Source of the DNA: Gammaproteobacteria bacterium
Lineage (GTDB): Bacteria; Pseudomonadota; Gammaproteobacteria; JABDGN01
Length of the DNA stretch: 64,000 nt
Assembly: GCA_013285995.1 (NCBI GenBank)
Contig: JABDGN010000003.1
Location: 5,317-69,316, forward strand
Direction: 5' to 3'
Numbering within the stretch: position 1 is the stretch's first letter; each line of letters starts with the position of its first letter. Shown here in pieces: positions 451 to 17,622 of this stretch. Under the pieces are notes generated by a model. It searched no databases. It was not told the DNA's origin and worked only from the letters and a program-made list of their open reading frames with translations. A program made the translations under genes and the position numbers.

Positions 451-523
451 TTGCTTATCTCCAATAATTTATTTTCACTGTCTTTGCGTAAGCAAAAACT
501 TAATGATCCAATTAATCCACTAT

Positions 524-548: not shown

Positions 549-552
549 TTTA

Positions 553-603
553 CATCCCCCTTTAAAAAAGGATCCCCCTTTGGTAAAGGGGGCAGGGGGA
601 TTT
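553..603. repeat. family D C5/G5 hairpin element (ccccctttaaaaaaggatccccctttggtaaagggggcaggggga)
   Basis: Same ...aaagggggcaggggga(tt) terminus as copies at 16261, 43633 and 49745. Abuts the stop codon of the 602..961 gene. Confidence 0.75.
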
Positions 604-961: not shown

Positions 962-1188
962 TATTTCTCCCATTTTGTTTGGCGAGTTAAACACATACAA
1001 ATGTTTACTCTTGCTCTGGTTACCTTTTAGTTACACGTGTGTATGAGCACTTTGACACGGCATATATTTCTTCCTTGCTGGCAAGTAAAACATTGACATC
1101 CTTGAAATACCAGCTGATAATAATCAGTACTATTTATAATTTAAAATTATAGCAATAATTTTATGTGTTAATTTTGAACAGGTGGATT

Positions 1189-2544
1189 ATGTTTACTCAG
1201 AATAACGAAGGAAAAGGTCTGGTAAAAGTTTATTGGGCTGATGTACGTGATCATGTTGCAAAAATAGAACCAAATTTTGCGAGATTAGTTGATACTTTAA
1301 ATCCTGATAAAACTTTTCCATTATATTTAGCTTATTATCCTTATGGGGCTTTAAAAGGTGATACAGAAAGTACTTTGTTACCTACTGTAGATGGGGGGTA
1401 TTATCGTGTTTCAGATCCAGATGCACCCAAAGATGTGGCTAAACATTTAGGATATAGCAAAGACTATGCTCCCCTGGCAATGTTACTTGATAAAAATTTT
1501 GAGCTATTTATGGATTTGAAAGCTGAAAAAATTAGCATTCCATGGATAATTTATTCGCCTGGCAGAATTTTCCCCTTTAACAGAATATTAAACCGAAAAA
1601 AACAACGTATCTATGCTCCTAACGGTGTTTTGACTATGACATCTGGTTCACGTTCTGTTTTTATGTTACCTAATATTGGCTGTTTTACAAATCATGTGAA
1701 TTTACAAGGTGATTTCAATGTAAAACTTCCACCGGCAAAATCTTTATATGAGCACTGGGCCATTTTTAAAGCTATTCTGGATAGTAACGTTATTCCTTGT
1801 GATTGGCGCTCTTGTATTATGTATTTTTCAGAAAAATGGCTTAGTAAGTTGCATGAAGATAAAGCGTGGGTGCCACTAAAATTATATTTACATGAGCTGG
1901 CTTGGGAATATTCAGAATATGATCGGAACAGAATATATTATGAAACAATTTTCTCGATGATACAAAAACAACGCAACTTGAAACCTAACCCTTATTTAGC
2001 AGATACTGCTCGCCACCTCTTTACTTCAGCTCTAGGCATTACGCCGGCTTATGCTCCGGTCTGCGATGAAAATGCTTTACCTTTTGAGATTTTGCAAAGA
2101 GCATTTGTTGAATCGTATGGGTTAAAGAAATATTTTCCCACGATTATGCAGCCTACACATTTTTATTTTGAAGAAGATAAACACCCTGTCTACTACTCTT
2201 TACAAAATCCTTCAACATATGTTTTTTCACCTAAATCCAGGCAAGTTTCCAGTACCTTATTTGAAATGCGAGAATTAGCAAATATCATTAAAGTATTTTC
2301 TGAAGAATTATCGAAAAGCAGCTCACCTTGCGCTGATACCGTTATGCGCCAAATAGCACATGACGTACAATTTAAATATTTTCATAATAAACCTGACAGA
2401 CATCATACTGTGAGACTTTCGGGTGAGATTGCTACATTGGATAAACGATTTGGTATGATTAACGCAAAATATAAGTTGCCAGATGCTGAATTTGCAGGAG
2501 ATGCACCTTTTGTACGGGGTTGTATTAGCATAGGTTCAAGTTAA
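1189..2544 (+). CDS. hypothetical protein, ~450 aa, no recognisable motifs
   Basis: Long ORF from 1165. ATG at 1189 is preceded by AGGTGGA. Its 3' end overlaps the convergent MFS gene by 9 nt. Confidence 0.7.
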   Translation: MFTQNNEGKGLVKVYWADVRDHVAKIEPNFARLVDTLNPDKTFPLYLAYYPYGALKGDTESTLLPTVDGGYYRVSDPDAPKDVAKHLGYSKDYAPLAMLLDKNFELFMDLKAEKISIPWIIYSPGRIFPFNRILNRKKQRIYAPNGVLTMTSGSRSVFMLPNIGCFTNHVNLQGDFNVKLPPAKSLYEHWAIFKAILDSNVIPCDWRSCIMYFSEKWLSKLHEDKAWVPLKLYLHELAWEYSEYDRNRIYYETIFSMIQKQRNLKPNPYLADTARHLFTSALGITPAYAPVCDENALPFEILQRAFVESYGLKKYFPTIMQPTHFYFEEDKHPVYYSLQNPSTYVFSPKSRQVSSTLFEMRELANIIKVFSEELSKSSSPCADTVMRQIAHDVQFKYFHNKPDRHHTVRLSGEIATLDKRFGMINAKYKLPDAEFAGDAPFVRGCISIGSS

Positions 2545-3756
2545 TCTTTTATAGTAATAACAACCTACAAAACATACCAGTCCGAGAAACCCACTGACAG
2601 TCCATACCATATCGCCTCCTAAATGGTGGTAAATAAATCCACCTAAAGCAGGACCGCTCACCATCCCTAAGGCATAAATGGCTTGAAAAAGCCCTAAATT
2701 ATAACTTTGATCTTCTTCTCGGCTATATTGATAAACTAATAATTGTGCCATTGCAAAAAAACACATCTCACCTAAGGTATAAACAACACACGCAATAATA
2801 GCAAGACTAAATATAACGGAGAAAGTTAACATCAGCATACCCAGCCCCATTAATAAAGCCCCTATTCCAACGATGAGTATTTTATTAAAACGGAGTAAGT
2901 GGCTTGCTAAAAACGTTTGGAATAAGACGATAATCAAAGGATTTATAGTAAATAATAGCCCAATTCCTTTAGTACCTAATTCGGGAAAGAGATCGTGAAC
3001 ATACACTAAATAAGTGGTGCTGCGCTGAGAAATAATAATACCTACCAGAAACAAACAGAATAAAACCAGCCAAATTATTTTTATATTTTTTAATTGAGAT
3101 TTATTTTTATTTTGATAGTTAACTGCAGTATGCTCTATTGATGACAAAAACTGTATGGGGGTTTTCAGATGAAAAATAAAATAAATCAGAGATAGAAATA
3201 ACAATATACCTGCCAAGTAAAATACATCTTCAAAACCTCGCGCACCTAAAAAACTCACTATTACGCCAGCAAGTCCAATACCTAGATTGGCAGTAGCATA
3301 TAATACGTTAATGGTCTTAAATTTTTCGGCTTCATGACTTTTACAAGAAGTAAGCACCCAAATATAATTGGCTGTTTTAAAGCCATAAGTTGTCACACCT
3401 AAGATAAATAAATCAACAAATAAAAAATTAACAGTATGAAATCGTGCGAGAGCAAAAAATGCTAGAGTCTTGCATAAGAGTGAAATAATGGCAATGGCAT
3501 TGGAAGGAATATGCTGAGAAAGTTTACCACTGACATAACCTCCAATAACTGTCCCTATGCCATACACTGAAATCATCAGTCCTGCCAGGGCAATATTAAG
3601 ATGTAATGTTTTTACAAAATAGAAGGATAAGAAAAAAACCACGCCAGCAGAAATATTATTAATAAAACTAACCGCTATTCTTTGCCAAAAAGCAATTGGT
3701 AACCCATGATAACTTTGAAAATATGTTTTTATACCTGTTTGCAAATAACTTAGCAT
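2536..3756 (-). CDS. MFS-type transporter (putative exporter)
   Basis: 406 aa with about 12 hydrophobic helices and the two-halves architecture typical of major facilitator proteins. Directly downstream of the methylase gene. Confidence 0.75.
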   Translation of the reverse strand: MLSYLQTGIKTYFQSYHGLPIAFWQRIAVSFINNISAGVVFFLSFYFVKTLHLNIALAGLMISVYGIGTVIGGYVSGKLSQHIPSNAIAIISLLCKTLAFFALARFHTVNFLFVDLFILGVTTYGFKTANYIWVLTSCKSHEAEKFKTINVLYATANLGIGLAGVIVSFLGARGFEDVFYLAGILLFLSLIYFIFHLKTPIQFLSSIEHTAVNYQNKNKSQLKNIKIIWLVLFCLFLVGIIISQRSTTYLVYVHDLFPELGTKGIGLLFTINPLIIVLFQTFLASHLLRFNKILIVGIGALLMGLGMLMLTFSVIFSLAIIACVVYTLGEMCFFAMAQLLVYQYSREEDQSYNLGLFQAIYALGMVSGPALGGFIYHHLGGDMVWTVSGFLGLVCFVGCYYYKRLT

Positions 3757-3785
3757 GCTTACAACCTGTAATATAAACTCTCAAT

Positions 3786-4586
3786 TTACTTATTGAGTGG
3801 AATTTCAATACCAAGGGTTTTTAACATGCCCTTCTTGATTTGCGATCTCTTAGCAGGAGGCACATATAATGTTGCAGTTCGCGAAATAATAGTACTGGGT
3901 AGCTGCTCTAAAGGAAATTTATATATTTTCGCTTCAAAACCTGTATATTGAGCTGCTTCATATAATATCACCTCATGATTTGAAAGATAATATTTATTTA
4001 AATGTTGTACCAAAGCATGCAATGCTTTAGAGTTTTTTTGGTCGATAGTGTGCTCAAGAATGCCGATAATACCTACTTGCCATAATAACAAATGGCTATT
4101 GGGATCCCACTTTCTGCCATATACAAGAAAATCCGTTGCTTCAAATGATTGACATCCGCAGGAGCCAGGATTAATTAATAGATCGGCAAATAAACAATCT
4201 TCTGCGGAAATACCAGGTAAAGCTCTTGCATCATAACCTACTTTTCTTGCTTGAATTACGGCATTCAAACCTGGTTCAGCGAAAACAGTAGGATGTCCAT
4301 ACAAAACCACACAGACATTTTGCTGTTTATATAAAGTTTCTAAAATATAATCTGTAATGGCTTTATAGCAGTCACTGCGTAATGGATATTTGATATAAAG
4401 TGGGTCTAAAGATTCAGCAGTGGAATTCGTTTTCTGAACCCACTGCTGCATAGCAGGTTCATTAAGTAAATATAAAACTTTATCTGCACGCTCGATATAA
4501 AGTTTTGCTTCAGTGGTAAGATGAGATAAAAATTTGATGCCTGAACCCACAAGAACCAAAGAGCCAGGGATTTTTTTATTCTGCAT
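3786..4586 (-). CDS. tetrapyrrole (corrin/porphyrin) methylase-fold SAM-dependent methyltransferase
   Basis: N-terminal GSLVLVGSGI glycine-rich motif and a YGHPTVFAEPG (GDP-like) motif, as in the TP_methylase/diphthine-synthase/RsmI fold. 266 aa. Confidence 0.65.
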   Translation of the reverse strand: MQNKKIPGSLVLVGSGIKFLSHLTTEAKLYIERADKVLYLLNEPAMQQWVQKTNSTAESLDPLYIKYPLRSDCYKAITDYILETLYKQQNVCVVLYGHPTVFAEPGLNAVIQARKVGYDARALPGISAEDCLFADLLINPGSCGCQSFEATDFLVYGRKWDPNSHLLLWQVGIIGILEHTIDQKNSKALHALVQHLNKYYLSNHEVILYEAAQYTGFEAKIYKFPLEQLPSTIISRTATLYVPPAKRSQIKKGMLKTLGIEIPLNK

Positions 4587-4648
4587 AGTGTATTCTGTTC
4601 ATAAAAAATTAAAGGGAAGAATACAGCAACTATATTTTAAATATCAAA

Positions 4649-4837
4649 CTAGAATCGGCACGAGGCTTGTTCATTAGCAAAATATGCTTGATGAGGGAAC
4701 ATTTTTTTTAGTAAATTAGGCTCATTTTTTGAAAAGGCTTCTTTTATTTCTTGTGGTTGATTGTTAATGAGAGTATTTAATTTCGGATCGAAGGTAGGCA
4801 TGTTCACAAGTTGTTCAAGCAAGGTAAGTATGTTCAT
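4649..4837 (-). CDS. small 62-aa peptide, paralog of the 4924..5121 product; candidate modified-peptide precursor
   Basis: MNILTLLEQLVNMPTFDPKLNTLINNQPQEIKEAFSKNEPNLLKKMFPHQAYFANEQASCRF is conserved with its neighbour over about 55 residues and diverges in the last 6-9 residues. Confidence 0.5.
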   Translation of the reverse strand: MNILTLLEQLVNMPTFDPKLNTLINNQPQEIKEAFSKNEPNLLKKMFPHQAYFANEQASCRF

Positions 4838-4923
4838 ATGATTTTCCCAGTGTTTGCCATAACCCAGAGCGGGAAAGGCTTTTATCTTTTCTCATTTAAT
4901 GTGAATCAGAACCATTGTAACTT

Positions 4924-5121
4924 TTATATTCTATCACTTAAAAACACAGCATGCTCATTAGCAAAATATTCTTGCTGAGAAATTGCTCGTTTTAATAGGC
5001 TGTGGTCATTCACTAAAAAAGCGTTCGTTATTTCTTTCTTTTGTTGATTAATTAAAACTTGAGTCACAGGCTCAAAATGGCAACAAGCTGCAAGTTGTTC
5101 AAGAAAATTCAGAACCGCCAT
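4924..5121 (-). CDS. small 65-aa peptide, paralog of 4649..4837; candidate modified-peptide precursor
   Basis: MAVLNFLEQLAACCHFEPVTQVLINQQKKEITNAFLVNDHSLLKRAISQQEYFANEHAVFLSDRI. GGGGA lies upstream. First gene of a minus-strand operon. Confidence 0.5.
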   Translation of the reverse strand: MAVLNFLEQLAACCHFEPVTQVLINQQKKEITNAFLVNDHSLLKRAISQQEYFANEHAVFLSDRI

Positions 5122-5208
5122 TATTTTATCCCCGATTTTTTAAATATGCCAGATATTATAGTACGAAAAATTATAGGAAAACTATTTTTTATAATATATA
5201 TTGCTTAA

Positions 5209-5721
5209 TTAATAAACAGATAGCATAGAACACACTGGATGTTGCTTAATTAAATGACCCCCATGTCTAGACCACTGTTTAATCTTCTCAAGCAGGCGGG
5301 CATTCTCTTGTGCCCGGCGGCTGAGTTTTCCTCTGCAATAGCGATAATACCCACTACACGATACCTTCAATACACGCGCCATCTCCACAACCCGCCATGC
5401 TTTCACATGTGAACGCATAAACTCATATTTTTCCTTTACGGTGATGAGAAGATGGCTAGCGCTTTTTTTAATATATCGCGCTCGCGTCGTAATACTTCAT
5501 TTTCCCGTTCTAATTTACGTACCCGTTCATCTTCTACTTTCGGGTGACCACTGCCCGGAAAAGCCCCTTTGCCCCCCATTTTTTTAAGCCCTCACCCAGC
5601 ATTGCAAGGTCGATAGACCAATTCCCAGGTCATGGCTGGCCTGACTCACCGATAATTTTTGCTCTCTTACTAACTTTACAGCATTTAATTTAAATTCTTT
5701 ATCATATTTTCTTTTTGGCAT
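5209..5721 (-). mobile_element. IS3-family insertion sequence remnant (frameshifted orfA plus truncated orfB)
   Basis: Minus-strand orfA MPKRKYDKEFKLNAVKLVREQKLSVSQASHDLGI... is preceded by GAGGAG but broken by stops. orfB N-terminal fragment is MRSHVKAWRVVEMARVLKVSCSGYYRYCRGKLSRRAQENARLLEKIKQ (HTH_21-like). The element is only about 0.5 kb. Confidence 0.7.
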
Positions 5722-5825
5722 ATTCCACTCCTCAGCGGTATTTTACCCCTGTTTGGAGTGTCTATTAAATTGTAGCAAGATCAAATCGCTTCTACTTTGC
5801 CATCCAACAAACTCACAATAATTTT

Positions 5826-8800
5826 TCACGACGTGGTAGAAAGCAAGCTTTGGCAGTAGATGGAGGCGAAGGGCCACCAAAAGGCGAGCACGGGGGCGGT
5901 GGCGTTATCGCCGATGGCGGTGATGTTGGTGCCTTTGGTATTGTCCAGTTTGGTATTAACCATCCCCTTGAAGTTAAACAGTGCATTGGGATTATTTTGC
6001 TGAGGCCCTAAAATGCCGATATGAGTGTATACAGTATCCATATTGATGCAACCGATTAAGCCATTGGCAGTAAAATTATTGACATACGCATTTAAAAAAG
6101 CGCACCAGTTGCCGGGAGCTAAAGCGCGGTTATTGGGTGGTAAAGCTATGCCACCTAAATTAGGTGCCGAAATATTCGAAGGACAAATCGCGCCGAGGGA
6201 ACCTGTCGACCGGGTGCCGCCGCTGGTGCGGATAGTGCGACTGCTGCTAGCACTATCGCTGCTGCCGACCGTGGCCCAGCCAGCAGCTGCGCTGGTGAGC
6301 TCATTGAACGCGCTGGTGGCGTAGGCATAAGCGCTGCTGGTCGCTTGCATGGCGCTGGTGGCGGCATGGTAGGCTGAGCTTTGGAGGCTGCCGAGGGAGC
6401 TGGCGATTTGTTGCACCACAGTGGTGCCGCCACCTATTGGCTGCGTACTGGCCGCGGGGAGGGGGGCTGTACTTACCGGCACCACCGGCCCACTGGTCGG
6501 CGCCGCGCCGGCGGTGGCGCTGCCAAACAAGGTGCTGACTACACCCATAACCGCTTGATACGCCGTGCTCCCTGCAGCTTGTGCCGTTGTAATCGCCTGT
6601 TGCACCAGGCCCACATCGCCGCTGCTCAGTGCTGTGGTGGTCGCCTGAATAGATTGAGCGCTGTCAGAGGCCGATTGTCCGCTCAAAGAAAAAGACGTTT
6701 GCACTTCGTTAAGTTTGGTATTTAAAGTGCTGACGGCCGACACTTGCGCTGGCATTGTCCCTAAAGTGCTGCCGGCGGCCCGGATTGCGGCGGTGGTCCC
6801 GGCCCCGGTGCTGTCAACTGCTATATTATTGCTGGAGCCAAATTCCAACACGCCAGCCGCAATGGCCGTGCTTTGTTGGCCGAGGCTGCTCATAACAGCG
6901 CCCAAACTGCTGCCGAGTGCCGCGACCTGAGTGCTGCCAGCCCCCACTTGCTCGCTGGTTACTTGCGCATTGTTTAAACCTTGCTCTGCTGTACTGCCTG
7001 CTGCGTAATTACCGCTGCTTAATTCCATTTTTACGGTTGTTACCGCGGTGTCGGCTGACTTCCCGGTACTGACAGCGTTGCCGGTAATCGTACTGGAAGC
7101 CAGTCCGGTGGCCATGGCTGAGCTTGCCACGGCCAGGCCAGTTGCCGCCGTACTTTGAATGGCCGCCGTGGCGACGGCTTTTTGCGTGGAATTTAACACA
7201 CCGGTACCTTGAGTAGCCCCGCTGGAGCGTGCCAGGTGTTCACTTAAAACCGGCAACGTCGACACGGCGGATTGGATCGGCATTATGGATTGCGTTGTTG
7301 AGCTGATGAGCGCAGCAGTTGAGTCGCCCTTGCTTGAACCAGTGGCGGCCACGCCACCAGCCGAACTTTGTTGCGCAAGATTGACTCCGCTGCTTGCCGC
7401 GCCTATAGCGCTTTGTGATGATTGCAGCAACGCCTGGCTAGTAGAAAATACATTATTAGCGGCCGTCGATTGACGCGGACCCAAACCGCCGGTGGTGCCA
7501 CTACCACCGGTGCTTACACTCATGCGGGCGAGTTGCAAGCTGGTGCCGGCGTTGTTAATCATTGCGCCGGTGCTTTGGATCGCATTTTGCACCATTTCTG
7601 TCGAAACCACGCCGGGGCCAGTGCTTCCGACAGGTCCCGAGCTGCCTGCGGCCGGAGCACCGGCAGCGTCACTTGAAACTGCAGCGGGGCCAGTGCTTCC
7701 GGCAGGTCCCGAGCTGCCTGCGGCCGGAACGCCGACAGCGTCACTTGAAACTGCAGCGGGGCCAGTGCTTCCGGCAGGTCCCAAGTTGCCCACGGCCGAC
7801 GATCCAACCTCACTGCTGCCTGCACCACTCGTTCCGCTGCTTGCTGCCAGAGCGAAGCTGATACTCGCGGAGCTGGCAGCAAGCCAGGCGCTGCCGGTCG
7901 CTGCCGCTGTTTGCACCGCGACGATTTGTTGCGTGCTACCGCTTGGTTGCAGAGCCAGTGATGAAGCGTAAGATCGAAAACCCGTGACCAGGGCCGTCCA
8001 GGTAAGGGGTTGCAGCGTTGAAATCGGAACGCCCGAACTTCCCGAACTCCCCGGACTAACAACTCCTTCGGAACTTCCCAAACTGCCCGCGCTCGAGGCA
8101 ACCTGACTGGCGACAGTTGCGCTGGCCCCGGTAGAAACATCGGCCAGGCTAAGTGCGGTGTTAGTACTAGCCACAAAACGATTAGCTTGTGATGTGCGTT
8201 GTAAAGTGGCAAGTCCCGTCACCAACTGTTCGGTACTTAAATTAGGCGTGCCACGGCCGCTCGTGCTTCCCGAGCGCGCTAACACGAGTCCGCTGCTGCC
8301 CGTGGGTGGCGCGCCGGTATTTCCCGTGCGCACTAACACGGGTCCGCTGCTGTCGAATACTCCCGTGCTGTAGCTTGCGACGTGGGCTGCCAAAGCGCTG
8401 CTACTGCCAGCGGCAACTTGAATCGCCCGACTGCTTTGCGCTGCACCGGCACTGGTTGCCAAGGCACTGCTTAAGGCGGCAGCGGGCAGATTGCCGGTGC
8501 TGGCACTTTTTCCGGTACTTGATAAGATATTAGTTATAACAGACTGAGTTGAAACACTATTTTGTTCAATATTTTGCGCGGTACTGGCAATCATTTCGCT
8601 GCTGACTTGATTAGCTGTTGCGGCTGTGCTCACGGCTCCTGCCACGCCTGCCGCGCTGGACGCAGTATTTGCAATGGTAGTCGCATCATAAGGATTTTGG
8701 GCGAACGAGCTGCTGAGCGCATCGACTCCGGCGCTACTGGCAGAGCTGGCCTGGCTCGCTGCGCTGCTTGCTTCATGAGCGAAAGTAGAACCCCCCACGC

Positions 8801-11800
8801 CGGAGGCCGCGCCAAAGGCGAGGGAAGTTTCTAATACCGCACCGGCAGCTTGATGGGTCGTTGCCACTGCCACCGCACTGCTGGAAGGGGCATTGTCTGA
8901 GCTGGCAAAATTGCCGCTACTTCCTAAATTACTTTGTGTGGCCTTCGCCAGTGCCAGCGTGCTGCCTGGCAAGCCTGTGCCGCCGGTATTAGCCAATGCT
9001 GTTTGAGCACTCGTATAAGCTATGAAGGCAGTGCTTCTGGCTTGATTAGCAAGATCAGTCAATGCCGCAGCGGTGGCTATTTGTTCCGATGTTTGCGCGA
9101 GAATACTGGCGCTGGCAGCTGCACTGCTCGCGCGAGCAGCATCGCGCACAGCGGTACTGGCGCTTTGCAGGGCCAGAAATACATCACTCGTTGCGCCGGT
9201 ATTCATCAACACCGCTGCTGCTGTGCTGGCTCGCAATGATTCATGGGAAGTTTGTAAAGCCGTCGTACCCGCGCTGCCAAAATTAAGCGTTGGTACTACA
9301 CTTTGCAAAGTAGCCTCTGCCGTTTGCCCGGCCGCCACCGTGGGGTTGCCGGTGCTGAAGGCATTGCTTACGGTAATGACCGGCTCCATTGCAGTGGCAA
9401 GACTAGTCGCGAGCAGCGGAATTTGCGCGTGCGCGCTGGAAGCTTGCTGCACAATAGCTACACCGCTGCTCAAGCCTGGGCTTTGGCCCCCGCTAGTCGT
9501 TAATTGAGCTTGCAAACTGGTTTGGGCTTGATTTGCATCGCTTAAGAAGCTAGCGCTGCTTTGCACAATTTGTTGATTAGTGGTGTGGAGGGTCGTAGCG
9601 CTCGCGGCCATCGCCGCCGCCGAACTAATATTATTTCCCGTTCCATTAGCCCCGGTAGAACCGGCCACCGGTAGAGCGCCTCGCGTACTTACAGCCGGCG
9701 GCAACGGTATGCTGGCACTGCTGCCCGCAGCAAAACTAAGTACTGCCTGCAGAGTTTGGCTGGCAGTTAAAGCTAAATTAGCGCCACTGCTCGCATTTTG
9801 ATTTGCCAATACCAGGCTAGTGTAAGCGGTGCTGCTCGGGTGACTGCGCCCGGCATGTTGAAAAAAATAAGCGTTGGGATCGCCCGTTAATTCGCCGGTG
9901 CCCAAAGTTGCCAGCGCATTTTGCGCACTGCTATAAGCTGCTTGCGTGTTATAGAGGGCGGTAGAAAGATCGCCGCTTCGCAAAGCGTTACCCGCCGTAT
10001 TCAAATGGCTAAGCGCCGTGCTGGTATATTGATTACTGGTATCAATTTGCTGCAAGATAACTTGTTCGGTGGTAGATAAATCAGTTCCCGTGCTTTGCAA
10101 GTTAGCACTGCTTTGGGCTACGAAAGTGGCTGCTTGCTGGCTGCTTGCCAGCGCCCGTCCGGTACTGCTCAACACTTGATATTCTCTGCTGGTAGAAGCA
10201 TAGCCACCACTTGCCAGCTGGTTTTGTAAAGCCTCCCCTGTACTGTTAAGAGAGCTACCGATTTGAGTTGCCAAGGCTTTGGTACTGTCTGCCGAAGGAA
10301 TGGAATCACTACTGGTGAGTTTTAATGCGCCACTTAAACGTCCAAGGGTAGTTCCTTGTAATTCCAGGGAAATTGCAAAAGTGCTCAAGACTGTAGGTGA
10401 AATAAGACCGCTGCTGCTGCTAAGGCGCACTAAGTTAAGAGTTGCCAACAGGGACGTTACGCCACCCGTAATGGCTGCTGGTAAGGCGCTGCTACCGCTC
10501 GGGTTAACATCACTCGTGTTGTCGTTTCCATTACTGCTGCTACTGCTATGCAACATTTGTCGTAAAGTGCTGGCGGCCTGGCTGCTTTGTGCGGCAAAAG
10601 TTCCGCTCGGTACTTGACCGGTTTCTTCGGCACGCGCTGTACCCGCCAAACTATTCGCGATGGCAGTGCTTTGGTCTGCTAACGCGGAGGACGCCGCGAC
10701 GGGGACACTGCCGCCTGTGCCGGCAGATTGGGTGGCCTGGATGAGTGCGGCCTCAGTGGTTTTGATGCCACTTTGGAATTGGCTAATGCTTTGCTGAATC
10801 TCGTTGGTGACGGGGGAAGGGCCAGTGCTGCCAGTGGCCGAAAGAAACAGTTCGGGAAAAAAAGTGCTGGCGGTTTCGCTGGTGGCGGCCAGGCTTTCAG
10901 CAGCGATCCCAAGTGTAGTGGTAAAAATAGCCGTCGATAAATCTTTAGCGGAGTGTGCAGTTGCTTTAATGCTGGTACTGGTGTAGTCAGTGCTGTCAGC
11001 TTGCTCGCCAAGATCGCCGGTGAGGCGCCTACCAGCTTGTGTAGTGGGCGCACTGGCAGGAAAGGGTGATGGCGGCGGCGGTGATGGCGACGGCGGTGAT
11101 GGCGATGGGGGTGATGGCGGTGCCATACCATTGCCACTGGTTGGCGCAGCAGAAGTTGGTGCAGTATTATTGCCAGCAGCTGGCGGTGGTGGCGACGGGG
11201 GTGATGGCGGTGCCATACCATTGCCACTGTAACCTGCTTGGCTGGTTGGCGCAGCAGAAGTTGGTGCAGTATTATTGCCAGCAGCTGGCGGTGGTGGCGA
11301 TGGTGATGATGGCGGTGATGACGGCGGCGATGACGGCGGTGGACACCAATCTCCACCCCAACCTCCATGCCTGTTAACGCATTCATTGCCAATAATTGCC
11401 GCCGCTGGCAGCAGACATAGGAGCCAGCATAAATTCCACAGCTTTGGGTTACACGAGCGCGATTTCTTTTTTTGTGGAGCTGCACCCATTGTAGTTGCAG
11501 TTCCGGCGGCTCCCTTCCGGAAGTTTGCCATATAATCACGCACTTTCTGCGCCACCGTATTACCGGCGGCACTACCCATTGCAGTTGCAGTTCCCGTGGC
11601 TCCATCTGCAGTTCGCATGGCTTCATCCAGGAGCCTTACCATATGCTCACGCACTTGTTGATTCGCTACATCGGCGGCATTTGTTTGCCTAACAATAGGT
11701 TTTTTTTGCTTTAATTCTCTTTGTATATTAACCGCCCGATTCTTTGCTTGACTGGCATCCTTCAATAAAGCAGCTTTAAGCCCCTCAAGCGGGCGATAAT

Positions 11801-14060
11801 ACTCTGCTGGATAAAGTTGTTCAATTTTATCTCCTTGCATGCTAATAAAGGCCAATAGTGTATCGGCATCGGAAATATATTGCGCTGTACATTTTTCACA
11901 ACCGAGTTCTTGTAAAGTGGGAATGGCGACTCCTGTCGCCGTTTTTGTTTCTGCCAAGGTTTGTGCTAAAAGTGTTGCTGCATCAGCAGCTGTGCGTGGC
12001 GAAAGAGCAAATTGAATAGTGTGAGTTTGTTGCCAAGTCGACAATTGGCTATTTAGCCCGGCAAATTGACTGAGATACCCTTGAATATCATTGTCGATGG
12101 CCGTAAAACTCATGGGTGCAACCTTGGCCCAATTGGTTTTTTGCGTCGCAATATTCTCTGCGCTTTGTTTTATAGCCGCTGCAATCTTTTCTAGTTCTTC
12201 AAGTGGCGTGACAGCGTGCGATCCACTGGCAGCGGGACCTGCAGCATTTGCTTCGTCTGCGGGCGTTGTTCCCGCAATAGGTGGAAGCCGCACTCTGGCG
12301 AGATTTCCCCCTGCTATGGGCATTTCACCATTAGTTGGTGGGAACTGTGAATCGAGAGTAAAGCCTTCAGGGGGAAACGTTTGACCTTGGCTGGGTGCTA
12401 CGGCAGGAGATAATGCAGTGGGATCTGATATGCCCGCTGGGGTTCTGACAGTTCCTTCTTCTGGATAAATATTTTCTACTGGGGTTGGCGTTTGTGGAAA
12501 GAATTCTAGCGTTGCTGATGCAGCAGCGGGTTTAAGTACCGGACTGCGCCCATCGCCCAGATTGAGCGTCTCCCGTGGTGGCGGAGTTTGTGGAGATAAT
12601 TTGCGTGATGCTGGTACAGGAGTAGGCAAAAGCTTGGGTACTCCGCTCGGAGCTTTTTTCTCGCGCTGAGCTTTCAGAGCGAGCAATTTTTCTTGCTGTT
12701 GTTTAGTCTTGGCATACTTGCGCCAGGCTTGCGCGATAATTTTTTGTGCGGTATCTTCGTCCAATCTTCTGCCGCTAGTGTGCAGTCTCCCTGCAGCAGA
12801 GCCTGGTTGCGGAGGAAGTGTGCGGGGCGAGTTCTCTGGAGGGTTTTGTGTGGGATCTCCTTCCAATCTTCTGTTGCTAGTGTGAAATCTCCCTGCAGCA
12901 GAGCCTGGTTGCGGAGGAAGTGTACGGGGCGAGTTATTTGGAGAGTTTTGTGTGGGATCTCCTTCCAATCTTCTGTTGCTAGTGTGAAATCTACCTGCAC
13001 CAGGGTCTGATTGCTCTGATTGCAGAGGAGGTGTGCGGGGCGACTTATCTGGAGGGTTTTGTGTGAGATCCACCTCCGGTTTTTTAGTGCTAATGTGAAG
13101 TCTTGGGTTATGGCGAAGAAGACCGTCATCTAACCTGATTTCAAAGGGTTCATCGTCGACTCCTTGGGGTCGAATTTCTTTTTTTCGCCCGCTGGGGTTT
13201 TTACCCGCAGGATTTCCTGTTTTTGTGTTTCCCAGCTTGTGGGCAAATACACGAGTGGCATCCTCATCCCCGTTAGACTCTTCTCCATCCAAGGCGTTAG
13301 CTGCAGCAGCAGCAGCTTCTTCTTCTGCTTTTTTTCGCTTTGCTTCTTCTTCTGCTTTTTTTCGCTTTTCTTGCTCCTCCGCTTCGAGATTTTGCTGACG
13401 TAATTTTTCTTGCAAATTTCTTATCGTAGCCTGGCTTTTAAAGCCACCGGGTGCAGCGCCGGGATTGACTAAAGTCATAGCACCGGAGCGCAGCATTTCC
13501 CTATGAGCAGGAGGCAAATTTCCACTACGAGTGGGAATGGGGCTTGCTGGTGGGGCTCCTGAGCGTGCTACCTCCAGATAACTGGGCGCTTTTGGCGGCG
13601 GCGAAGCTGACGGAGACACATTTGGCGGTGGCGAAGGGGGTGGAGACACATTTGGTGGCGATACCGTGGGCGGCGAATCACCAGGCGAAGAATTGCTTGA
13701 GGTAGGACTCACACCACTAAGGTGAGGTGCGGCGGAACCAGACGGAATAGGAAGTGGGGCTGAAGTTGAAGTAAGTCTCTTTTTTTGTGCAGCAATATAT
13801 TCCAAAGCCCCCGCAAGATCCGGTGCGCGGGCGTTTGAGGCGTTTGGCAGTACCGCTCCAAGATCCGGTGCGGGGGCGTTTGAGTCGCTTGGCAGTACGG
13901 CGGGAGCGGGAGCAGGCTTAAGGCCAAAATGATTGCTGGGCTTGAAAATATTCCGGGTGTTACTCGGCAGTACCCGAGTTGGCTGTGTGCTACTCGGCGG
14001 TACCCGAGGCCGTACCTGAACCCCGGGGTCTGGACCAACTCTGCCGCCACGATCTAACAT
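5826..14060 (-). CDS. giant 2744-aa low-complexity repeat protein (P-rich N-terminal region, central TM-like segment, about 1500-aa S/T/A/G/Q-rich region, Cys-containing C-terminal domain)
   Basis: Uninterrupted 8.2 kb ORF. GC content is far above neighbouring genes. Contains about 105-bp tandem repeats (approx 12760..13080) and roughly 100-bp PPSPP-coding direct repeats (approx 11100..11330). A hydrophobic stretch LWNLCWLLCLLPAAAIIG lies at approx 11385..11445. Confidence 0.8.
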   Translation of the reverse strand: MLDRGGRVGPDPGVQVRPRVPPSSTQPTRVLPSNTRNIFKPSNHFGLKPAPAPAVLPSDSNAPAPDLGAVLPNASNARAPDLAGALEYIAAQKKRLTSTSAPLPIPSGSAAPHLSGVSPTSSNSSPGDSPPTVSPPNVSPPPSPPPNVSPSASPPPKAPSYLEVARSGAPPASPIPTRSGNLPPAHREMLRSGAMTLVNPGAAPGGFKSQATIRNLQEKLRQQNLEAEEQEKRKKAEEEAKRKKAEEEAAAAAANALDGEESNGDEDATRVFAHKLGNTKTGNPAGKNPSGRKKEIRPQGVDDEPFEIRLDDGLLRHNPRLHISTKKPEVDLTQNPPDKSPRTPPLQSEQSDPGAGRFHTSNRRLEGDPTQNSPNNSPRTLPPQPGSAAGRFHTSNRRLEGDPTQNPPENSPRTLPPQPGSAAGRLHTSGRRLDEDTAQKIIAQAWRKYAKTKQQQEKLLALKAQREKKAPSGVPKLLPTPVPASRKLSPQTPPPRETLNLGDGRSPVLKPAAASATLEFFPQTPTPVENIYPEEGTVRTPAGISDPTALSPAVAPSQGQTFPPEGFTLDSQFPPTNGEMPIAGGNLARVRLPPIAGTTPADEANAAGPAASGSHAVTPLEELEKIAAAIKQSAENIATQKTNWAKVAPMSFTAIDNDIQGYLSQFAGLNSQLSTWQQTHTIQFALSPRTAADAATLLAQTLAETKTATGVAIPTLQELGCEKCTAQYISDADTLLAFISMQGDKIEQLYPAEYYRPLEGLKAALLKDASQAKNRAVNIQRELKQKKPIVRQTNAADVANQQVREHMVRLLDEAMRTADGATGTATAMGSAAGNTVAQKVRDYMANFRKGAAGTATTMGAAPQKKKSRSCNPKLWNLCWLLCLLPAAAIIGNECVNRHGGWGGDWCPPPSSPPSSPPSSPSPPPPAAGNNTAPTSAAPTSQAGYSGNGMAPPSPPSPPPPAAGNNTAPTSAAPTSGNGMAPPSPPSPSPPSPSPPPPSPFPASAPTTQAGRRLTGDLGEQADSTDYTSTSIKATAHSAKDLSTAIFTTTLGIAAESLAATSETASTFFPELFLSATGSTGPSPVTNEIQQSISQFQSGIKTTEAALIQATQSAGTGGSVPVAASSALADQSTAIANSLAGTARAEETGQVPSGTFAAQSSQAASTLRQMLHSSSSSNGNDNTSDVNPSGSSALPAAITGGVTSLLATLNLVRLSSSSGLISPTVLSTFAISLELQGTTLGRLSGALKLTSSDSIPSADSTKALATQIGSSLNSTGEALQNQLASGGYASTSREYQVLSSTGRALASSQQAATFVAQSSANLQSTGTDLSTTEQVILQQIDTSNQYTSTALSHLNTAGNALRSGDLSTALYNTQAAYSSAQNALATLGTGELTGDPNAYFFQHAGRSHPSSTAYTSLVLANQNASSGANLALTASQTLQAVLSFAAGSSASIPLPPAVSTRGALPVAGSTGANGTGNNISSAAAMAASATTLHTTNQQIVQSSASFLSDANQAQTSLQAQLTTSGGQSPGLSSGVAIVQQASSAHAQIPLLATSLATAMEPVITVSNAFSTGNPTVAAGQTAEATLQSVVPTLNFGSAGTTALQTSHESLRASTAAAVLMNTGATSDVFLALQSASTAVRDAARASSAAASASILAQTSEQIATAAALTDLANQARSTAFIAYTSAQTALANTGGTGLPGSTLALAKATQSNLGSSGNFASSDNAPSSSAVAVATTHQAAGAVLETSLAFGAASGVGGSTFAHEASSAASQASSASSAGVDALSSSFAQNPYDATTIANTASSAAGVAGAVSTAATANQVSSEMIASTAQNIEQNSVSTQSVITNILSSTGKSASTGNLPAAALSSALATSAGAAQSSRAIQVAAGSSSALAAHVASYSTGVFDSSGPVLVRTGNTGAPPTGSSGLVLARSGSTSGRGTPNLSTEQLVTGLATLQRTSQANRFVASTNTALSLADVSTGASATVASQVASSAGSLGSSEGVVSPGSSGSSGVPISTLQPLTWTALVTGFRSYASSLALQPSGSTQQIVAVQTAAATGSAWLAASSASISFALAASSGTSGAGSSEVGSSAVGNLGPAGSTGPAAVSSDAVGVPAAGSSGPAGSTGPAAVSSDAAGAPAAGSSGPVGSTGPGVVSTEMVQNAIQSTGAMINNAGTSLQLARMSVSTGGSGTTGGLGPRQSTAANNVFSTSQALLQSSQSAIGAASSGVNLAQQSSAGGVAATGSSKGDSTAALISSTTQSIMPIQSAVSTLPVLSEHLARSSGATQGTGVLNSTQKAVATAAIQSTAATGLAVASSAMATGLASSTITGNAVSTGKSADTAVTTVKMELSSGNYAAGSTAEQGLNNAQVTSEQVGAGSTQVAALGSSLGAVMSSLGQQSTAIAAGVLEFGSSNNIAVDSTGAGTTAAIRAAGSTLGTMPAQVSAVSTLNTKLNEVQTSFSLSGQSASDSAQSIQATTTALSSGDVGLVQQAITTAQAAGSTAYQAVMGVVSTLFGSATAGAAPTSGPVVPVSTAPLPAASTQPIGGGTTVVQQIASSLGSLQSSAYHAATSAMQATSSAYAYATSAFNELTSAAAGWATVGSSDSASSSRTIRTSGGTRSTGSLGAICPSNISAPNLGGIALPPNNRALAPGNWCAFLNAYVNNFTANGLIGCINMDTVYTHIGILGPQQNNPNALFNFKGMVNTKLDNTKGTNITAIGDNATAPVLAFWWPFASIYCQSLLSTTS

Positions 14061-14240
14061 AGACTGTCCCTACTAATTGATACAGCAAATATGCCACGCC
14101 TAGCCATAAATGGCAACCGGCTTAAAGAAAAAACTTTAGCATCCCTGCTGTTGAGAGTTTGCGCTCAATATCCCACCCATCTCCTGAATCGTTCAATAAA
14201 ACTGGAAAACCTAAATGGAATAACTATATACTCGCCTTTT

Positions 14241-15107
14241 ATGATGACCCTCAACGACATCCTGCAATGGGGCGCCAGCCGCTTCGAAACAGCTAACTTA
14301 TATTTTGGCCATGGCACCGATAATGCCTGGGATGAAGCCGTGTGGCTGGCTTCGCACATTTTGAATTTGCCGCCCGATGCCGATCGCAAGTTATTAACCC
14401 GTGAACTCAGCCTGTATGAAATGACGGCAATTCGTAATTTATATGGCAAGCGTATTGCCACGCGCAAACCGGCTGCGTATTTAGTAAACGAAGCTTGGTT
14501 TGCCGGCCAAAAATTTTATGTGGATGAACGCGTGATTGTGCCGCGCTCTCCCATTGCTGAATTAATCGCAGCACACTTTAAACCTTGGATTAAACTCTCG
14601 CAAGTCAAAAATATTTTGGATTTATGCACCGGTAGCGCCTGTATTGCGATTGCTTGCGCTAAACAATTTCCCAACGCACAGGTTGATGCGAGTGATATTT
14701 CGGAAGCTGCTTTAGAGGTTGCAAAGATCAATGTGGAAAAACATTCTTCATCGGTTCATTTATATCAATCCGATTTATTCAAAGCCTTGCCCATTAAAAA
14801 ATATGACATCATCATTTCTAATCCGCCTTATGTTGATGCTGAAGATATGGCCGCTTTACCGCAAGAATATAACGCCGAACCGCGTTTAGCCTTGGCGGCT
14901 GGCAAAGATGGCTTGCGTTTAGTTGATAAAATTTTAAAACAAGCCAAAAATTATTTAAGTGATGAGGGCATTTTGATTGTAGAAGTCGGCAATAGTGAAG
15001 CAGCTTTAGTTGCAAAATATTCGCAGGTCTCTTTCGTTTGGCTGGAATTTAAGCAAGGAGGGCAGGGGGTGTTTTTGTTAAAGGCTGAGGACTTAAAAAA
15101 TTTTTAA
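14241..15107 (+). CDS. prmB: 50S ribosomal protein L3 glutamine N5-methyltransferase PrmB (HemK family)
   Basis: NPPY motif (IISNPPYVDAEDMAALPQEYNAEPRLAL) and a PrmB-like N-terminus MMTLNDILQWGASRFETANLYFGHGTDNAWDEA. ORF opens at 14091, but that would leave only 30 bp to the divergent giant gene. Confidence 0.85.
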   Translation: MMTLNDILQWGASRFETANLYFGHGTDNAWDEAVWLASHILNLPPDADRKLLTRELSLYEMTAIRNLYGKRIATRKPAAYLVNEAWFAGQKFYVDERVIVPRSPIAELIAAHFKPWIKLSQVKNILDLCTGSACIAIACAKQFPNAQVDASDISEAALEVAKINVEKHSSSVHLYQSDLFKALPIKKYDIIISNPPYVDAEDMAALPQEYNAEPRLALAAGKDGLRLVDKILKQAKNYLSDEGILIVEVGNSEAALVAKYSQVSFVWLEFKQGGQGVFLLKAEDLKNF

Positions 15108-15124
15108 TCGTCTATAATCTCAAT

Positions 15125-15149
15125 GTAGGGGCGGCTCGCGAGCCGCCCG
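15125..15149. repeat. family A palindromic element (gtaggggcggctcgcgagccgcccg)
   Basis: Perfect palindrome 17 nt after the prmB stop. Confidence 0.8.
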
Positions 15150-15171
15150 TTATTTTAAAAGAGTATTTCCA

Positions 15172-16257
15172 ATGACAAAAAAAACTACTGTCGCCGTCTT
15201 GTATGGTGGCGTTTCCGGCGAACATGAAGTATCGATTATTTCAGCCAGTTCCGTTATCAAGCACATCGATCGCAAAAAATATTCCATTATTCCGATTGGC
15301 ATCGATAAAAAGGGCCGTTGGCACCGTAATGAATTAGCCAACGTTGATCCTTTAGAAGGCGAAAAATTGGTAGTACAAGGGAAGGGTGCCAAACCTTTTT
15401 CACTGGATTATTTTTTTCACACGCCGCATGAGATCGAGGTGGTATTTCCCGTTTTACATGGCACTAATGGTGAAGATGGCACCATGCAAGGGTTTTTAGA
15501 ATTAGCCAATGTTGCTTATGTGGGCGCGGGTGTGCTCTCTTCGAGCTTGGGGATGGATAAAGATGTCACCAAACGGTTAGCATTACAAGCTGGTATAAAA
15601 GTGACGCCTTATTGGGCTTTTACAGTAGGTGAATGGCAGCGCCATGCCGATGCGATCCTCGAGAAAATCGAACAAAAATTAACTTACCCCATGTTTGCCA
15701 AGCCAGCCAATACCGGTTCCAGCGTGGGAATTACCAAAGTTAAAAAACCCGCTGAATTGCGCGCAGCGATCGACAATGCTTTTTTATATGATAGCAAAGC
15801 GATCGTGGAACAAGGTTTGCGAGTCAGGGAAGTTGAATTGGCGGTGCTGGAAAATCCACTGCACGGTGAAAAACCTTTAGTGAGCGTACCGGGTGAAATT
15901 ATTACCAGCCACGAATTTTATACCTATGAAGCAAAATATTTAGATGAAAAAAGTTTGCAACTGATTATTCCCGCGCAGGTTTCTGACAGCCATTTAAAAG
16001 AATTGCAACGCATCGCCAGTACGGTATTTGAGTTATTAGAATGTCGTGGTATGGCACGGGTGGATTGTTTTATCGACAAAGATACCGATGCCGTAGTGTT
16101 CAATGAAATCAATACCATTCCTGGCTTCACGCACGTCAGCATGTATCCAATGATGTGGCAAAAAAGCGGTAAAGCTTATCCGGAGTTACTCGATAATTTG
16201 TTGCAATTGGCAATTGCACGGCAGGATAGAAAGCTGAAGCTAAAGCGGTCGCCGTAG
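15172..16257 (+). CDS. ddl: D-alanine--D-alanine ligase
   Basis: MTKKTTVAVLYGGVSGEHEVSIISASSV... ATP-grasp Ddl signature. 361 aa. Confidence 0.93.
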   Translation: MTKKTTVAVLYGGVSGEHEVSIISASSVIKHIDRKKYSIIPIGIDKKGRWHRNELANVDPLEGEKLVVQGKGAKPFSLDYFFHTPHEIEVVFPVLHGTNGEDGTMQGFLELANVAYVGAGVLSSSLGMDKDVTKRLALQAGIKVTPYWAFTVGEWQRHADAILEKIEQKLTYPMFAKPANTGSSVGITKVKKPAELRAAIDNAFLYDSKAIVEQGLRVREVELAVLENPLHGEKPLVSVPGEIITSHEFYTYEAKYLDEKSLQLIIPAQVSDSHLKELQRIASTVFELLECRGMARVDCFIDKDTDAVVFNEINTIPGFTHVSMYPMMWQKSGKAYPELLDNLLQLAIARQDRKLKLKRSP

Positions 16258-16260
16258 AAA

Positions 16261-16341
16261 ATCCCCCTTAGTCCCCCTTTTTCAAAGGGGGAAATCAAAA
16301 CAGCAGAATCCCCCCTTTGAAAAAGGGGGGCAGGGGGGATT
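16261..16341. repeat. family D hairpin element (two C5-loop-G5 hairpins ending ggggggcaggggggatt)
   Basis: Sits between convergent ddl and udk. Probably a bidirectional terminator. Confidence 0.75.
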
Positions 16342-16968
16342 TCAAGCGTTCAACAACATCTCTTTCATTTGCGCTTTAATCACATCGATCGCAATGCGAT
16401 TTTTACCGCCATGCGGCACGATAATGTCAGCATAACGTTTGCAGGGTTCAATAAATTGTTGGTACATAGGCCGCACCGTGTTTTCATATTGTTCTAACAC
16501 GGAATCTAAATCGCGACCCCGTTCTTTCACATCGCGCTTTAAACGCCGCAACAAGCACATATCGAGCGGGGTATCCATAAAAATACCGATGTCTAACAGT
16601 TCGCGTACTTTTGCTTCCACCAATAACAAAATGCCTTCTAACACGATAATCGCATGCTGCCCAATTTCACGGGTTTTATCGCTGCGTGTGTGTAAGCTGT
16701 AATCATAAACCGGCACTTGCACATTGCGGCCACCTTGCAATTGCTGCAATTGTTGACACAGTAATTCATGATCAAACGCATCGGGGTGGTCGTAATTGAT
16801 TTTTTGCCGTTGTTCTAAGGATAAATGTGAACGGTCTTTGTAATAAGAATCTTCCGAAATAATGACGACTTGATTAGAGCCTAACTCTTCCACAATGGTA
16901 CGGGCTAATAAACTTTTACCGGAGGCGGAAGGTCCGGCGATACCAATGATGATAGGTTGTTTATGCAT
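16342..16968 (-). CDS. udk: uridine kinase
   Basis: [17 protein letters not shown]-loop and Udk family sequence. 208 aa. Confidence 0.93.
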
Positions 16969-17002
16969 TTAAGTTCCTTGTTTTTGATTTATGACATCAG
17001 AT

Positions 17003-17052
17003 GTAGGGGCGGCTCGTGAGCCGCCCGCGGGCCGGTCACGACCGGCCCCTAC
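17003..17052. repeat. family A compound palindromic element (gtaggggcggctcgtgagccgcccgcgggccggtcacgaccggcccctac)
   Basis: Two nested GC-rich palindromes with GTAGG/CCTAC termini. Confidence 0.8.
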
Positions 17053-17085
17053 AGGAAGTACTTAACAGAGCGATTATAGCGTAAA

Positions 17086-17622
17086 TTATTCTTTTTCGCT
17101 CGCGATATTACGTAATAAAACCTGCACCGACCCCGCCCCACCATCCTTCGGCATGGCTGAATAAAAGGCTAATACATCTTTTAGCTCGCGCAACCATTGA
17201 TTAACAAAGTTTTTCAAAGTAGGATTATTATTTTCCGAGCGATGCCCTTTGCCATGAATAATCCGTATCACGCGATAATGTTTCGCCTGGCACTCCTGCA
17301 CAAATTTTTCTAAGGTTTGTTCTGCTTGCGCCAGTGTCAAACCATGCAAATCACATTCCGCTGCGCAAATTAAATTCCCTTTTTGCAAGTTACGCAATTG
17401 TCGCGGTTGTACTCCGGCACGCGAGAAATTTAATAAGCTATCGCTTTGTACGGGTTCTGTTCTTGGTACATTAAAATCTTTTGCAATGACGGACATTTCA
17501 GGAATCAGTTTGGGTTTACGTTTGATGCGCTTACGTGGTGTGATGATTTTATCGTGCGCAATGGGCTGCACCTTGCCGATGGAGTCACGAAATAATTGTG
17601 AAGGTTCTGTAGAATGTTTCAT
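17086..17622 (-). CDS. smrB: Smr-domain protein SmrB (ribosome rescue endonuclease)
   Basis: DLHGLTLAQAEQTLEKFVQECQAKHYRVIRIIHGKGHRS Smr domain. E. coli smrB (yfcN) is also adjacent to prmB. Confidence 0.8.
   Translation of the reverse strand: MKHSTEPSQLFRDSIGKVQPIAHDKIITPRKRIKRKPKLIPEMSVIAKDFNVPRTEPVQSDSLLNFSRAGVQPRQLRNLQKGNLICAAECDLHGLTLAQAEQTLEKFVQECQAKHYRVIRIIHGKGHRSENNNPTLKNFVNQWLRELKDVLAFYSAMPKDGGAGSVQVLLRNIASEKE

Follow-up and report, generated by a model that had tools for sequence, protein, structure and literature searches.

We examined a 64,000-nucleotide stretch of Gammaproteobacteria contig JABDGN010000003.1 (hereafter the window, meaning that whole stretch), in which one giant open reading frame (ORF) runs uninterrupted along the minus strand at 5826..14060. 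It comprises 2744 codons plus a stop and takes up 8.2 kb, or 13% of the window, and its protein, if expressed, would be among the genome's largest investments. Upstream of the giant gene and divergent from it lie prmB, then ddl, udk and smr; downstream come the relic of an IS3-family insertion sequence (IS), two paralogous ORFs of ~63 amino acids (aa), a tetrapyrrole-type methylase gene (TP_methylase), an MFS transporter gene and an orphan ORF. The rest of the window is housekeeping and biosynthetic in content (tig-clpPX-lon-ppiD, thrABC, dapA, purA, purC, murB, ddl, ftsQ, hflKC). The putative expression signals of the giant gene and the regions of its predicted product are as follows:

14088..14116, minus strand: promoter-like site ahead of the giant ORF, sigma-70-like, TTGCCA-17-CATATT and an extended TG; a consensus match only
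14067..14071, minus strand: Shine-Dalgarno-like AGGGA, separated by 6 nt from the start codon (ATG at 14060), as seen in the sequence itself
12381..14060, minus strand: N-terminal region, aa 1-560, basic (+18) with local Pro contents of 15-28%, on the disordered side of the charge-hydropathy plot
12693..12740, minus strand: IQ-like stretch AQKIIAQAWRKYAKTK, aa 441-456, which failed the strict IQ pattern
11466..12275, minus strand: predicted helical domain, aa 596-865, of ordinary composition, with a CEKC motif at aa 721-724
11391..11441, minus strand: candidate transmembrane (TM) segment LWNLCWLLCLLPAAAII, aa 874-890, predicted; the only one above the Kyte-Doolittle TM threshold
11061..11381, minus strand: stalk, aa 894-1000, GGWGGDWC followed by a charge-free SP4/PPSPP-rich stretch with the duplicated unit PPPPAAGNNTAPTSAAPTS
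6291..11060, minus strand: body, aa 1001-2590, Ala/Ser/Thr/Gly/Gln/Leu-rich, net charge -22, no Cys, ~20% hydrophobic
5829..6290, minus strand: C-terminal domain, aa 2591-2744, ordinary in composition and containing 4 Cys and 4 Trp

The ORF frame contains no stop codon, versus 65-137 stops in each of the other five frames over the same stretch, a difference that excludes a chance origin for an open frame of 8.2 kb. By our own estimate, chance stops would fall at ~0.04 per codon at 55% GC. A first-pass annotation, made from the letters of the DNA alone, had described a single uninterrupted ORF of 2744 aa at these positions; that description is borne out, with the gene assigned to the minus strand. 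Codon 189 is the second ATG in frame. A contig from a separate short-read assembly in Logan (SRR8422337_425) is identical to window positions 487-7693 (100% identity), independently reproducing the junction between the flanking bacterial genes and the 3' end of the ORF together with the last 1.87 kb of the ORF itself (5826-7693). This contig ends within a 72-bp tandem array, and its support covers the ORF's 3' end, not the repeat copy numbers or the 5' three-quarters of the gene.

GC content per 500 bp was 0.49-0.63 within the giant gene and 0.31-0.46 in its flanks, and overall it was 0.550 for the giant gene versus 0.424 for the 34 other genes of the window (hereafter the host genes), in agreement with the first-pass remark that the gene lies far above its neighbours in GC. 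We then defined an expected value as the GC of the giant protein's amino-acid sequence when written with the synonymous codon frequencies of the 34 host genes. This expectation was 0.527, and ~80% of the excess over host genes is accounted for by amino-acid composition, because the codons for Ala, Ser, Thr, Gly and Pro are rich in G and C at their first two positions. At two-fold degenerate sites, GC at third codon positions (GC3) was 0.29 in the ORF frame (host genes, 0.21; other five frames, 0.40-0.66), and at four-fold sites it was 0.52 (host genes, 0.51). The mean logarithm of relative synonymous codon usage (mean ln RSCU) was higher in the ORF frame than in any of the other frames. The preferred codons of the body match the host choice (CAA 84%, AAT 69%, ATT 54%), and AGC and GGC are over-used there. 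Such frame-specific, host-like synonymous usage indicates that the giant gene is translated in the ORF frame and has been shaped by the genome's own biases. We therefore rejected a high-GC foreign island, against which the codon analysis argues. Evolution in situ rather than wholesale import from a high-GC source, as was proposed at first pass, is upheld on other evidence than that first given, namely the expected GC of 0.527, the two-fold and four-fold GC3 values, a whole-gene GC3 excess within the host range and the in-frame duplications, the last two described below. The gene is a clear worked example of a GC 'island' explained by amino-acid composition and not by horizontal transfer.

The GC3 excess over expectation was +0.056 for the whole giant gene, within the range of the 34 host genes (-0.128 to +0.082), and it climbs toward the 3' end, from ~0 in aa 1-1000 to values of +0.14 to +0.16 over the final ~750 codons. 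The latter values lie slightly outside the host range and are compatible with a chimeric past of the 3' part. Region by region, four-fold GC3 was 0.39 in aa 1-1000, 0.59 in the body and 0.625 in the C-terminal domain, where total GC3 was 0.578 versus an expected 0.419; GC3 of the N-terminal 1000 aa was at or below host expectation. These values overturn the first-pass statement that the C-terminal domain is host-like in its codons and the body is not: the C-terminal domain equals or exceeds the body, and it is the N-terminal 1000 aa that do not rise above the host expectation. The gradient, together with the over-use of AGC and GGC in the body, is what one would expect had all of the gene, or its 3' two-thirds, come from a higher-GC bacterium or from a eukaryotic host, with the IS3 relic marking a mobile past. 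A chimeric or foreign origin of this kind would also fit the extensin- and mucin-like features of the protein (SP3-4 motifs and a Ser/Thr-rich region past the TM segment), which hint at a eukaryotic source, as well as the position of the relic ~35 bp past the stop codon and a gene order around prmB unlike that of relatives, with the giant gene where udk-smr sit in them. However, codons at two-fold sites are host-like throughout, a donor-like homologue was found in no collection searched, the IS is truncated and does not lie on both sides of the giant gene, and the relatives available for synteny share only 53-62% PrmB identity, such that rearrangement is expected anyway. We consider a foreign or chimeric origin improbable.

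Tandem repeats are concentrated in the giant gene: Tandem Repeats Finder (TRF) reported 8 arrays in its 8.2 kb versus 6 in the remaining 55.8 kb of the window. All 8 periods are divisible by three (12, 15, 21, 21, 27, 30, 72 and 102 bp; chance probability by our own estimate ~(1/3)^8), and identity among repeat copies is 83-96%. The principal duplications are:

12742..13070, minus strand: 102-bp array, x3.1, encoding 34-aa RFHTSNRRLEGDPTQN units (GRFHTSNRRLEGDPTQNxPxNSPRTLPPQPGSAA), aa ~322-440
11137-11212 and 11242-11317, minus strand: 105-bp-spaced duplication, 96% identical, in the stalk
7603..7818, minus strand: 72-bp (24-aa) array, x2.6-3, encoding GPAGSTGPAAVSSDA(V/A)G(V/A)PAAGSS, aa ~2094-2160, within the body

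The 12- and 15-bp periods belong to arrays coding for PPSPP, and the N-terminal region also carries 45-bp, 30-bp and 27-bp tandem duplications. Copies 1 and 2 of the 102-bp array differ by two synonymous and two non-synonymous changes. Repeats had been placed near 12760-13080 and 11100-11330 at first pass, and both are confirmed with slightly different limits; the accompanying statement that the body has no repeating unit fails on the 72-bp array (x2.6) at 7603-7818. Detectable repeats sum to ~14% of the giant gene by our own count. Smith-Waterman comparison of 100-aa blocks of the body against shuffled sequence gave no indication of cryptic long repeats, with top scores no better than those of shuffles and a mean raised only slightly (50 versus 45). 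The identity of the copies argues that the duplications are recent, and taken with periods that are all multiples of three it points to duplication that preserved the frame while frame-breaking variants were filtered out. We conclude that the giant gene most likely continues to grow in place by frame-preserving tandem duplication, with a filter against variants that broke the frame.

We then searched for relatives of the giant protein. The whole protein and its C-terminal 151 aa had no homologue among 5.8 billion protein clusters, nor did aa 1-1040 and the last 155 aa in a full HMMER search of 1.84 billion representatives. No family was assigned by Pfam (whole protein and five pieces at an E-value of 10, and motif peptides) or by NCBIfam, and PDB sequences gave no match to the giant protein, its aa 596-865 domain or its C-terminal domain. 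Likewise, no relative was recovered by tblastn against plasmids and phages, by scans of viral and metagenome contigs, or by tblastn against 2.1 Mb of sequence from 162 loci that surround homologues of prmB, and no paralogue was found within the window. As controls, the 648-aa neighbouring ORF at 17835-19781 (plus strand) found only itself among the 5.8 billion clusters and had no Pfam or NCBIfam match, and the window's Lon, ClpX, ClpP, DapA and PurC each stood alone when 15 billion proteins were grouped at 90% identity. For PrmB the highest identity found anywhere was 62%, to metagenome-assembled genomes (MAGs) of Gammaproteobacteria. The lineage is thus essentially unsampled, to the point that a 90%-identical relative is missing even for ClpX and Lon, and a fast-evolving low-complexity protein in such a lineage is expected to look orphan. 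Judged from these sequence comparisons, orphan status partly reflects the unsampled lineage.

Together, our results indicate that the giant ORF is a genuine, resident and lineage-restricted (orphan) coding gene, native to this genome and with a GC content driven by composition, a conclusion in which we have high confidence. The contrary proposal is that the locus yields no functional product, being either an artefact of assembly or a recently expanded, neutral tract of simple sequence that is open by accident. Under it one would expect the missing homologue and domain, the absence of the giant protein from public protein sets that contain its neighbours, the failure of AlphaFold2 (AF2) to produce a fold, and a short-read assembly that breaks in the 72-bp array and leaves repeat copy numbers unverified. 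It would have to accommodate 2744 stop-free codons beside the 65-137 stops of the other frames, a detectably repetitive share of only ~14%, frame-specific and host-like synonymous usage, repeat periods that are all multiples of three, a helical hydrophobic periodicity (see below), a start codon with a ribosome-binding site and a promoter-like site, and an independently reproduced junction with the bacterial flank. We regard it as very improbable.

The encoded protein appears modular. Its N-terminal region contains SPPP three times (aa 139-156) and a Lys/Glu/Ala (K/E/A) stretch with two KRKK clusters (aa 215-256). The K/E/A stretch matches the TolA profile at an E-value of 1.6e-4 with 21 bits versus a cutoff of 59, and this match is compositional only. 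The IQ-like stretch fared no better: the strict pattern [FILV]Qxxx[RK]Gxxx[RK] is absent, PF00612 gave no match at an E-value of 10, and the sole profile match was to PF15157 (IQCJ-SCHIP1; E-value 0.09, 13.5 bits versus a cutoff of 28). The IQ-like motif of the first-pass annotation is therefore not sustained, nor are its eukaryote-like motifs in general, which are short and statistically unsupported. Matches to Use1 and Snf7 (E-values 0.04-0.3) had suggested a similarity to SNARE and ESCRT proteins, and were dismissed as coiled-coil noise.

Between the N-terminal region and the TM segment, aa 561-870 show a hydrophobic periodicity of 3.4-3.8 residues (z = 3.6), and an AF2 single-sequence model of aa 596-900 contained 8 helices at a mean predicted local distance difference test score (pLDDT) of 46.6; the aa 596-865 domain is probably all-alpha. 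The body consists of 50-64% Ala+Gly+Ser+Thr with 2-14% charged residues, and the charge-hydropathy plot places it on the ordered side. Its hydrophobic periodicity is again 3.4-3.8 residues (z = 4.9), with the beta band at background, which suggests that the body is probably a low-charge, helical region rather than simply disordered. AF2 run without an alignment on aa 1545-2744 was uninformative (pLDDT 32). The disorder attributed to the protein at first pass fits aa 1-560; the body is not simply disordered.

The candidate TM segment at aa 874-890 has a Kyte-Doolittle 19-aa mean of 1.85 (second best in the protein, 1.50), and its crude Hessa sum of +0.45 kcal/mol over 17 aa is the best in the protein, yet borderline. 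It corresponds to the one hydrophobic helix placed at ~11385-11445 by the first-pass annotation, which we locate at aa 874-895 (nt ~11376-11441). Equally in line with that annotation, we found no signal peptide: the first 70 aa are Pro/Arg-rich and without a hydrophobic core, with a best 10-aa Kyte-Doolittle mean of 0.85. Four Lys/Arg residues flank the segment on its N side and one on its C side, predicting an N-in/C-out orientation. All Cys residues are found near the TM segment or within the C-terminal domain, with none between aa 907 and 2625, as would fit an oxidising environment for the C-terminal part. Given the flanking-charge asymmetry, the Pro-rich stalk right after the segment, the placement of Cys and the helical periodicity of aa 561-870 and the body, the giant protein could be a single-pass N-in/C-out membrane protein, to which we assign somewhat less than an even chance.

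With this topology, aa 874-890 would act as an internal signal-anchor. The basic, Pro-rich, disordered N-terminal 560 aa and the ~270-aa helical domain would stay cytoplasmic, and the rigid SP4/PPSPP stalk, the ~1600-aa low-charge helical region and the ~150-aa, disulfide-capable Cys/Trp end domain would be exported to the envelope or surface, where the exported part might serve as a structural or adhesive fibre. A role as an envelope or surface fibre or adhesin is a tentative proposal that we make at modest odds. The searches revealed neither a secretion signal nor a secretion-partner gene, nor any domain typical of adhesins or effectors, and no ABC transporter, membrane fusion protein (MFP) or TolC export genes adjoin the giant gene.

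Several established classes of surface protein were tried and set aside. A classical or trimeric autotransporter was rejected for lack of a Sec signal and of any Pfam or NCBIfam match in the last 185 aa (E-values of 10 and 0.1); a C-terminal barrel or YadA anchor would end in an aromatic residue, and the protein ends in ...SLLSTTS. A giant type I RTX/BAP adhesin of the LapA/SiiE type was rejected because there is no Pfam match to a repeat domain and a single GGxGxD at aa 899 without an array. A C-terminal sorting signal (PEP-CTERM, GlyGly-CTERM or LPXTG) was rejected as well, as the last 185 aa had no NCBIfam match and contain no LPXTG and no basic tail.

The lack of a signal peptide would also be expected of a translocated effector, delivered for instance by a Dot/Icm-type type IV system, that would use aa 874-890 to lodge in a membrane of the host cell or of a vacuole and leave its N-terminal tail in the host cytosol to engage host proteins. 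The long, basic, disordered N-terminal region with SPPP/PxxP motifs, two KRKK clusters and tandem repeats would suit such a tail, and the giant protein is orphan and lineage-specific like many effectors. Three GDSL lipases encoded in the window are weakly similar to Legionella PlaA/PlaC, and a Legionellaceae MAG has the udk-smr-prmB neighbourhood in common. However, the window contains no secretion-system or chaperone genes, no dot/icm gene and no indication of an intracellular lifestyle, and it resembles that of a metabolically competent bacterium (thrABC, dapA, purine synthesis). The C-terminus lacks the Glu-rich E-block of Dot/Icm substrates, its final 24 residues (NATAPVLAFWWPFASIYCQSLLSTTS) being free of Asp and Glu; the IQ motif is unsupported, and no WH2, FPPPP or PPxY motif occurs in the giant protein. 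We consider an effector unlikely. A more specific version, distinctly improbable in our estimation, would make the protein a locally evolved bacterial mimic of a eukaryotic type II membrane glycoprotein, built for the most part de novo through in-frame duplication and drift in composition, and acting as an effector in the membrane of a protist host. If true, its cytosolic motif-rich tail, TM segment, extensin-like SP4 stalk, mucin-like or helical ectodomain and Cys knob would constitute a new class of giant membrane-inserted effector.

The best overall explanation would be a resident orphan gene that selection has kept open, that was lengthened in frame and encodes a modular protein whose C-terminal part is exported, to which we give a probability of roughly 0.5 on the strength of the sequence features above. 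Several findings weigh against it. No homologue, domain or structure match anchors any function, and neither exact look-up nor homology search recovered the giant protein from the 15-billion-protein collection, whereas neighbours from the same contig are present; it was either kept back from the collection or missed when genes were called. AF2 gave no confident fold (pLDDT 32 and 47). Differences between repeat copies (5 synonymous to 7 non-synonymous) are too few to show purifying selection, and across the final ~750 codons the GC3 excess (+0.14 to +0.16) is slightly beyond the host-gene maximum of +0.082. The hydrophobic core of aa 874-890 is just 17 aa long with a central Pro, and its Hessa value is borderline. 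Gram-negative bacteria do not usually place a signal-anchor 870 aa into a protein and leave 1850 aa to be exported, and no type I secretion system (T1SS), TpsB protein or autotransporter barrel is encoded next to the giant gene.

Directly downstream of the giant gene lies the IS relic, as the first-pass annotation had recognized:

5209..5790, minus strand: IS3-family relic, with a left-inverted-repeat-like (IRL-like) end, OrfA (5584-5721), a frameshift region and the first ~60 aa of OrfB

The spliced translation of the relic aligns with NF033516 over positions 1-143 of 369 (E-value 9e-29; 100.8 bits, below the cutoff of 160), a stretch that takes in OrfA, the leucine zipper and the beginning of OrfB; the DDE (rve) catalytic part is missing and the element is therefore truncated. 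The Logan annotation assigns PF01527 to it. Its IRL-like end is the part that lies ~35 bp past the stop codon of the giant gene. No second copy occurs in the window, and no DNA match was found in plasmids. On the far side of the relic, three genes at 1165-4586 (a 459-aa orphan, the MFS transporter and TP_methylase) have the lowest GC3 in the window (0.25-0.26), 0.11-0.13 under expectation; the AT-rich anomaly, a possible island, is on that side of the IS and is not the giant gene. The two small paralogous ORFs between them and the relic, at 4649-4837 and 4924-5121 (both minus strand), encode 62 and 65 aa that are 47% identical, both end in ...YFANE.. and have no Pfam or NCBIfam match. They might represent a duplicated regulatory, antitoxin or leader-peptide gene.

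On the other side of the giant gene, we compared gene order around prmB. In relatives udk-smr lie upstream of prmB, immediately so in a Legionellaceae MAG and ~3 kb away in a second Gammaproteobacteria MAG (loci L071, adjacent, and L002, ~3 kb). At the giant gene's own locus (14091-17622), udk-smr are downstream of prmB-ddl and inverted, and the giant gene occupies the upstream slot. With relatives at only 53-62% PrmB identity, for which rearrangement is expected, this difference in gene order says little.

Elsewhere in the window, three consecutive GDSL lipase genes at 54757-60607 (plus strand) encode proteins of 1035, 470 and 438 aa, the first of which matches the family in two separate stretches. 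Their weak similarity to PlaA/PlaC, seen with NCBIfam, is the window's only hint of Legionellales-like biology. At 20182-21916 (minus strand), a gene for an aKG-HExxH-type peptide beta-hydroxylase (TIGR04267, E-value 6e-13) overlaps a class I methyltransferase gene, and the two may be a peptide-modification pair, similar to those for ribosomally synthesized and post-translationally modified peptides (RiPP-like). Intergenic tandem arrays at 43631-43829 (36 bp x5.5, 96% matches) and 49750-49866 (49 bp x2.4) have the palindromic core CCCCCTTTT(C/T)CAAAGGGGG in common and look like a family of repeated hairpin elements resembling repetitive extragenic palindromes (REP-like).

Finally, we compared the giant protein with known systems. 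Extensins, the hydroxyproline-rich glycoproteins of plants and algae, and mucin-type stalks resemble it in that its six Ser-Pro3-4 motifs lie within a charge-free stalk, which a long Ser/Thr/Ala-rich region follows; unlike extensins, it has only those six motifs, no signal peptide, no Tyr cross-link motif and no homology, and its codon usage and context are bacterial. TonB and TolA likewise combine a membrane anchor, an extended Pro- or K/E/A-rich spacer and a C-terminal globular domain. However, the anchor of the giant protein is at residue 874, the protein is ~10 times larger, it has no TonB_C or TolA_C domain, and its TolA score is the 21 bits, versus 59, given above.

Membrane-inserted or disordered effectors of intracellular bacteria include chlamydial Inc proteins and TarP, Legionella Dot/Icm substrates, Rickettsia Sca2 and Burkholderia BimA. 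The giant protein is like these in being orphan, in its long disordered Pro-rich and repeat regions, in the absence of a Sec signal and in a potential host-membrane anchor. Inc proteins have a bilobed hydrophobic hairpin, whereas the giant protein has a single hydrophobic segment, and unlike the effectors named here it has no WH2 motif, E-block, autotransporter or passenger domain.

The closest parallel may be with other bacterial giants. As described in two reports, Giant1-5 of Apilactobacillus kunkeei and the giant proteins of bioRxiv 10.1101/2023.11.21.568195 are, like the present protein, several thousand residues long, restricted to a narrow lineage and largely unannotatable, with internal repeats, growth driven by recombination or duplication and a presumed role at the surface. 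Giant1-4 of A. kunkeei have a predicted N-terminal beta-solenoid (PMC12863079), and giant Omnitrophota proteins are reported to have numerous TM regions and SecA-like domains (bioRxiv 10.1101/2023.11.21.568195). Unlike the giants as presented there, the protein described here has no signal peptide, recognisable domain or homologue, and it has one internal TM segment and no beta-solenoid. By analogy with what these sources describe, it nonetheless resembles in kind the giant, lineage-restricted and largely unannotatable surface proteins of bacteria (PMC12863079; bioRxiv 10.1101/2023.11.21.568195).

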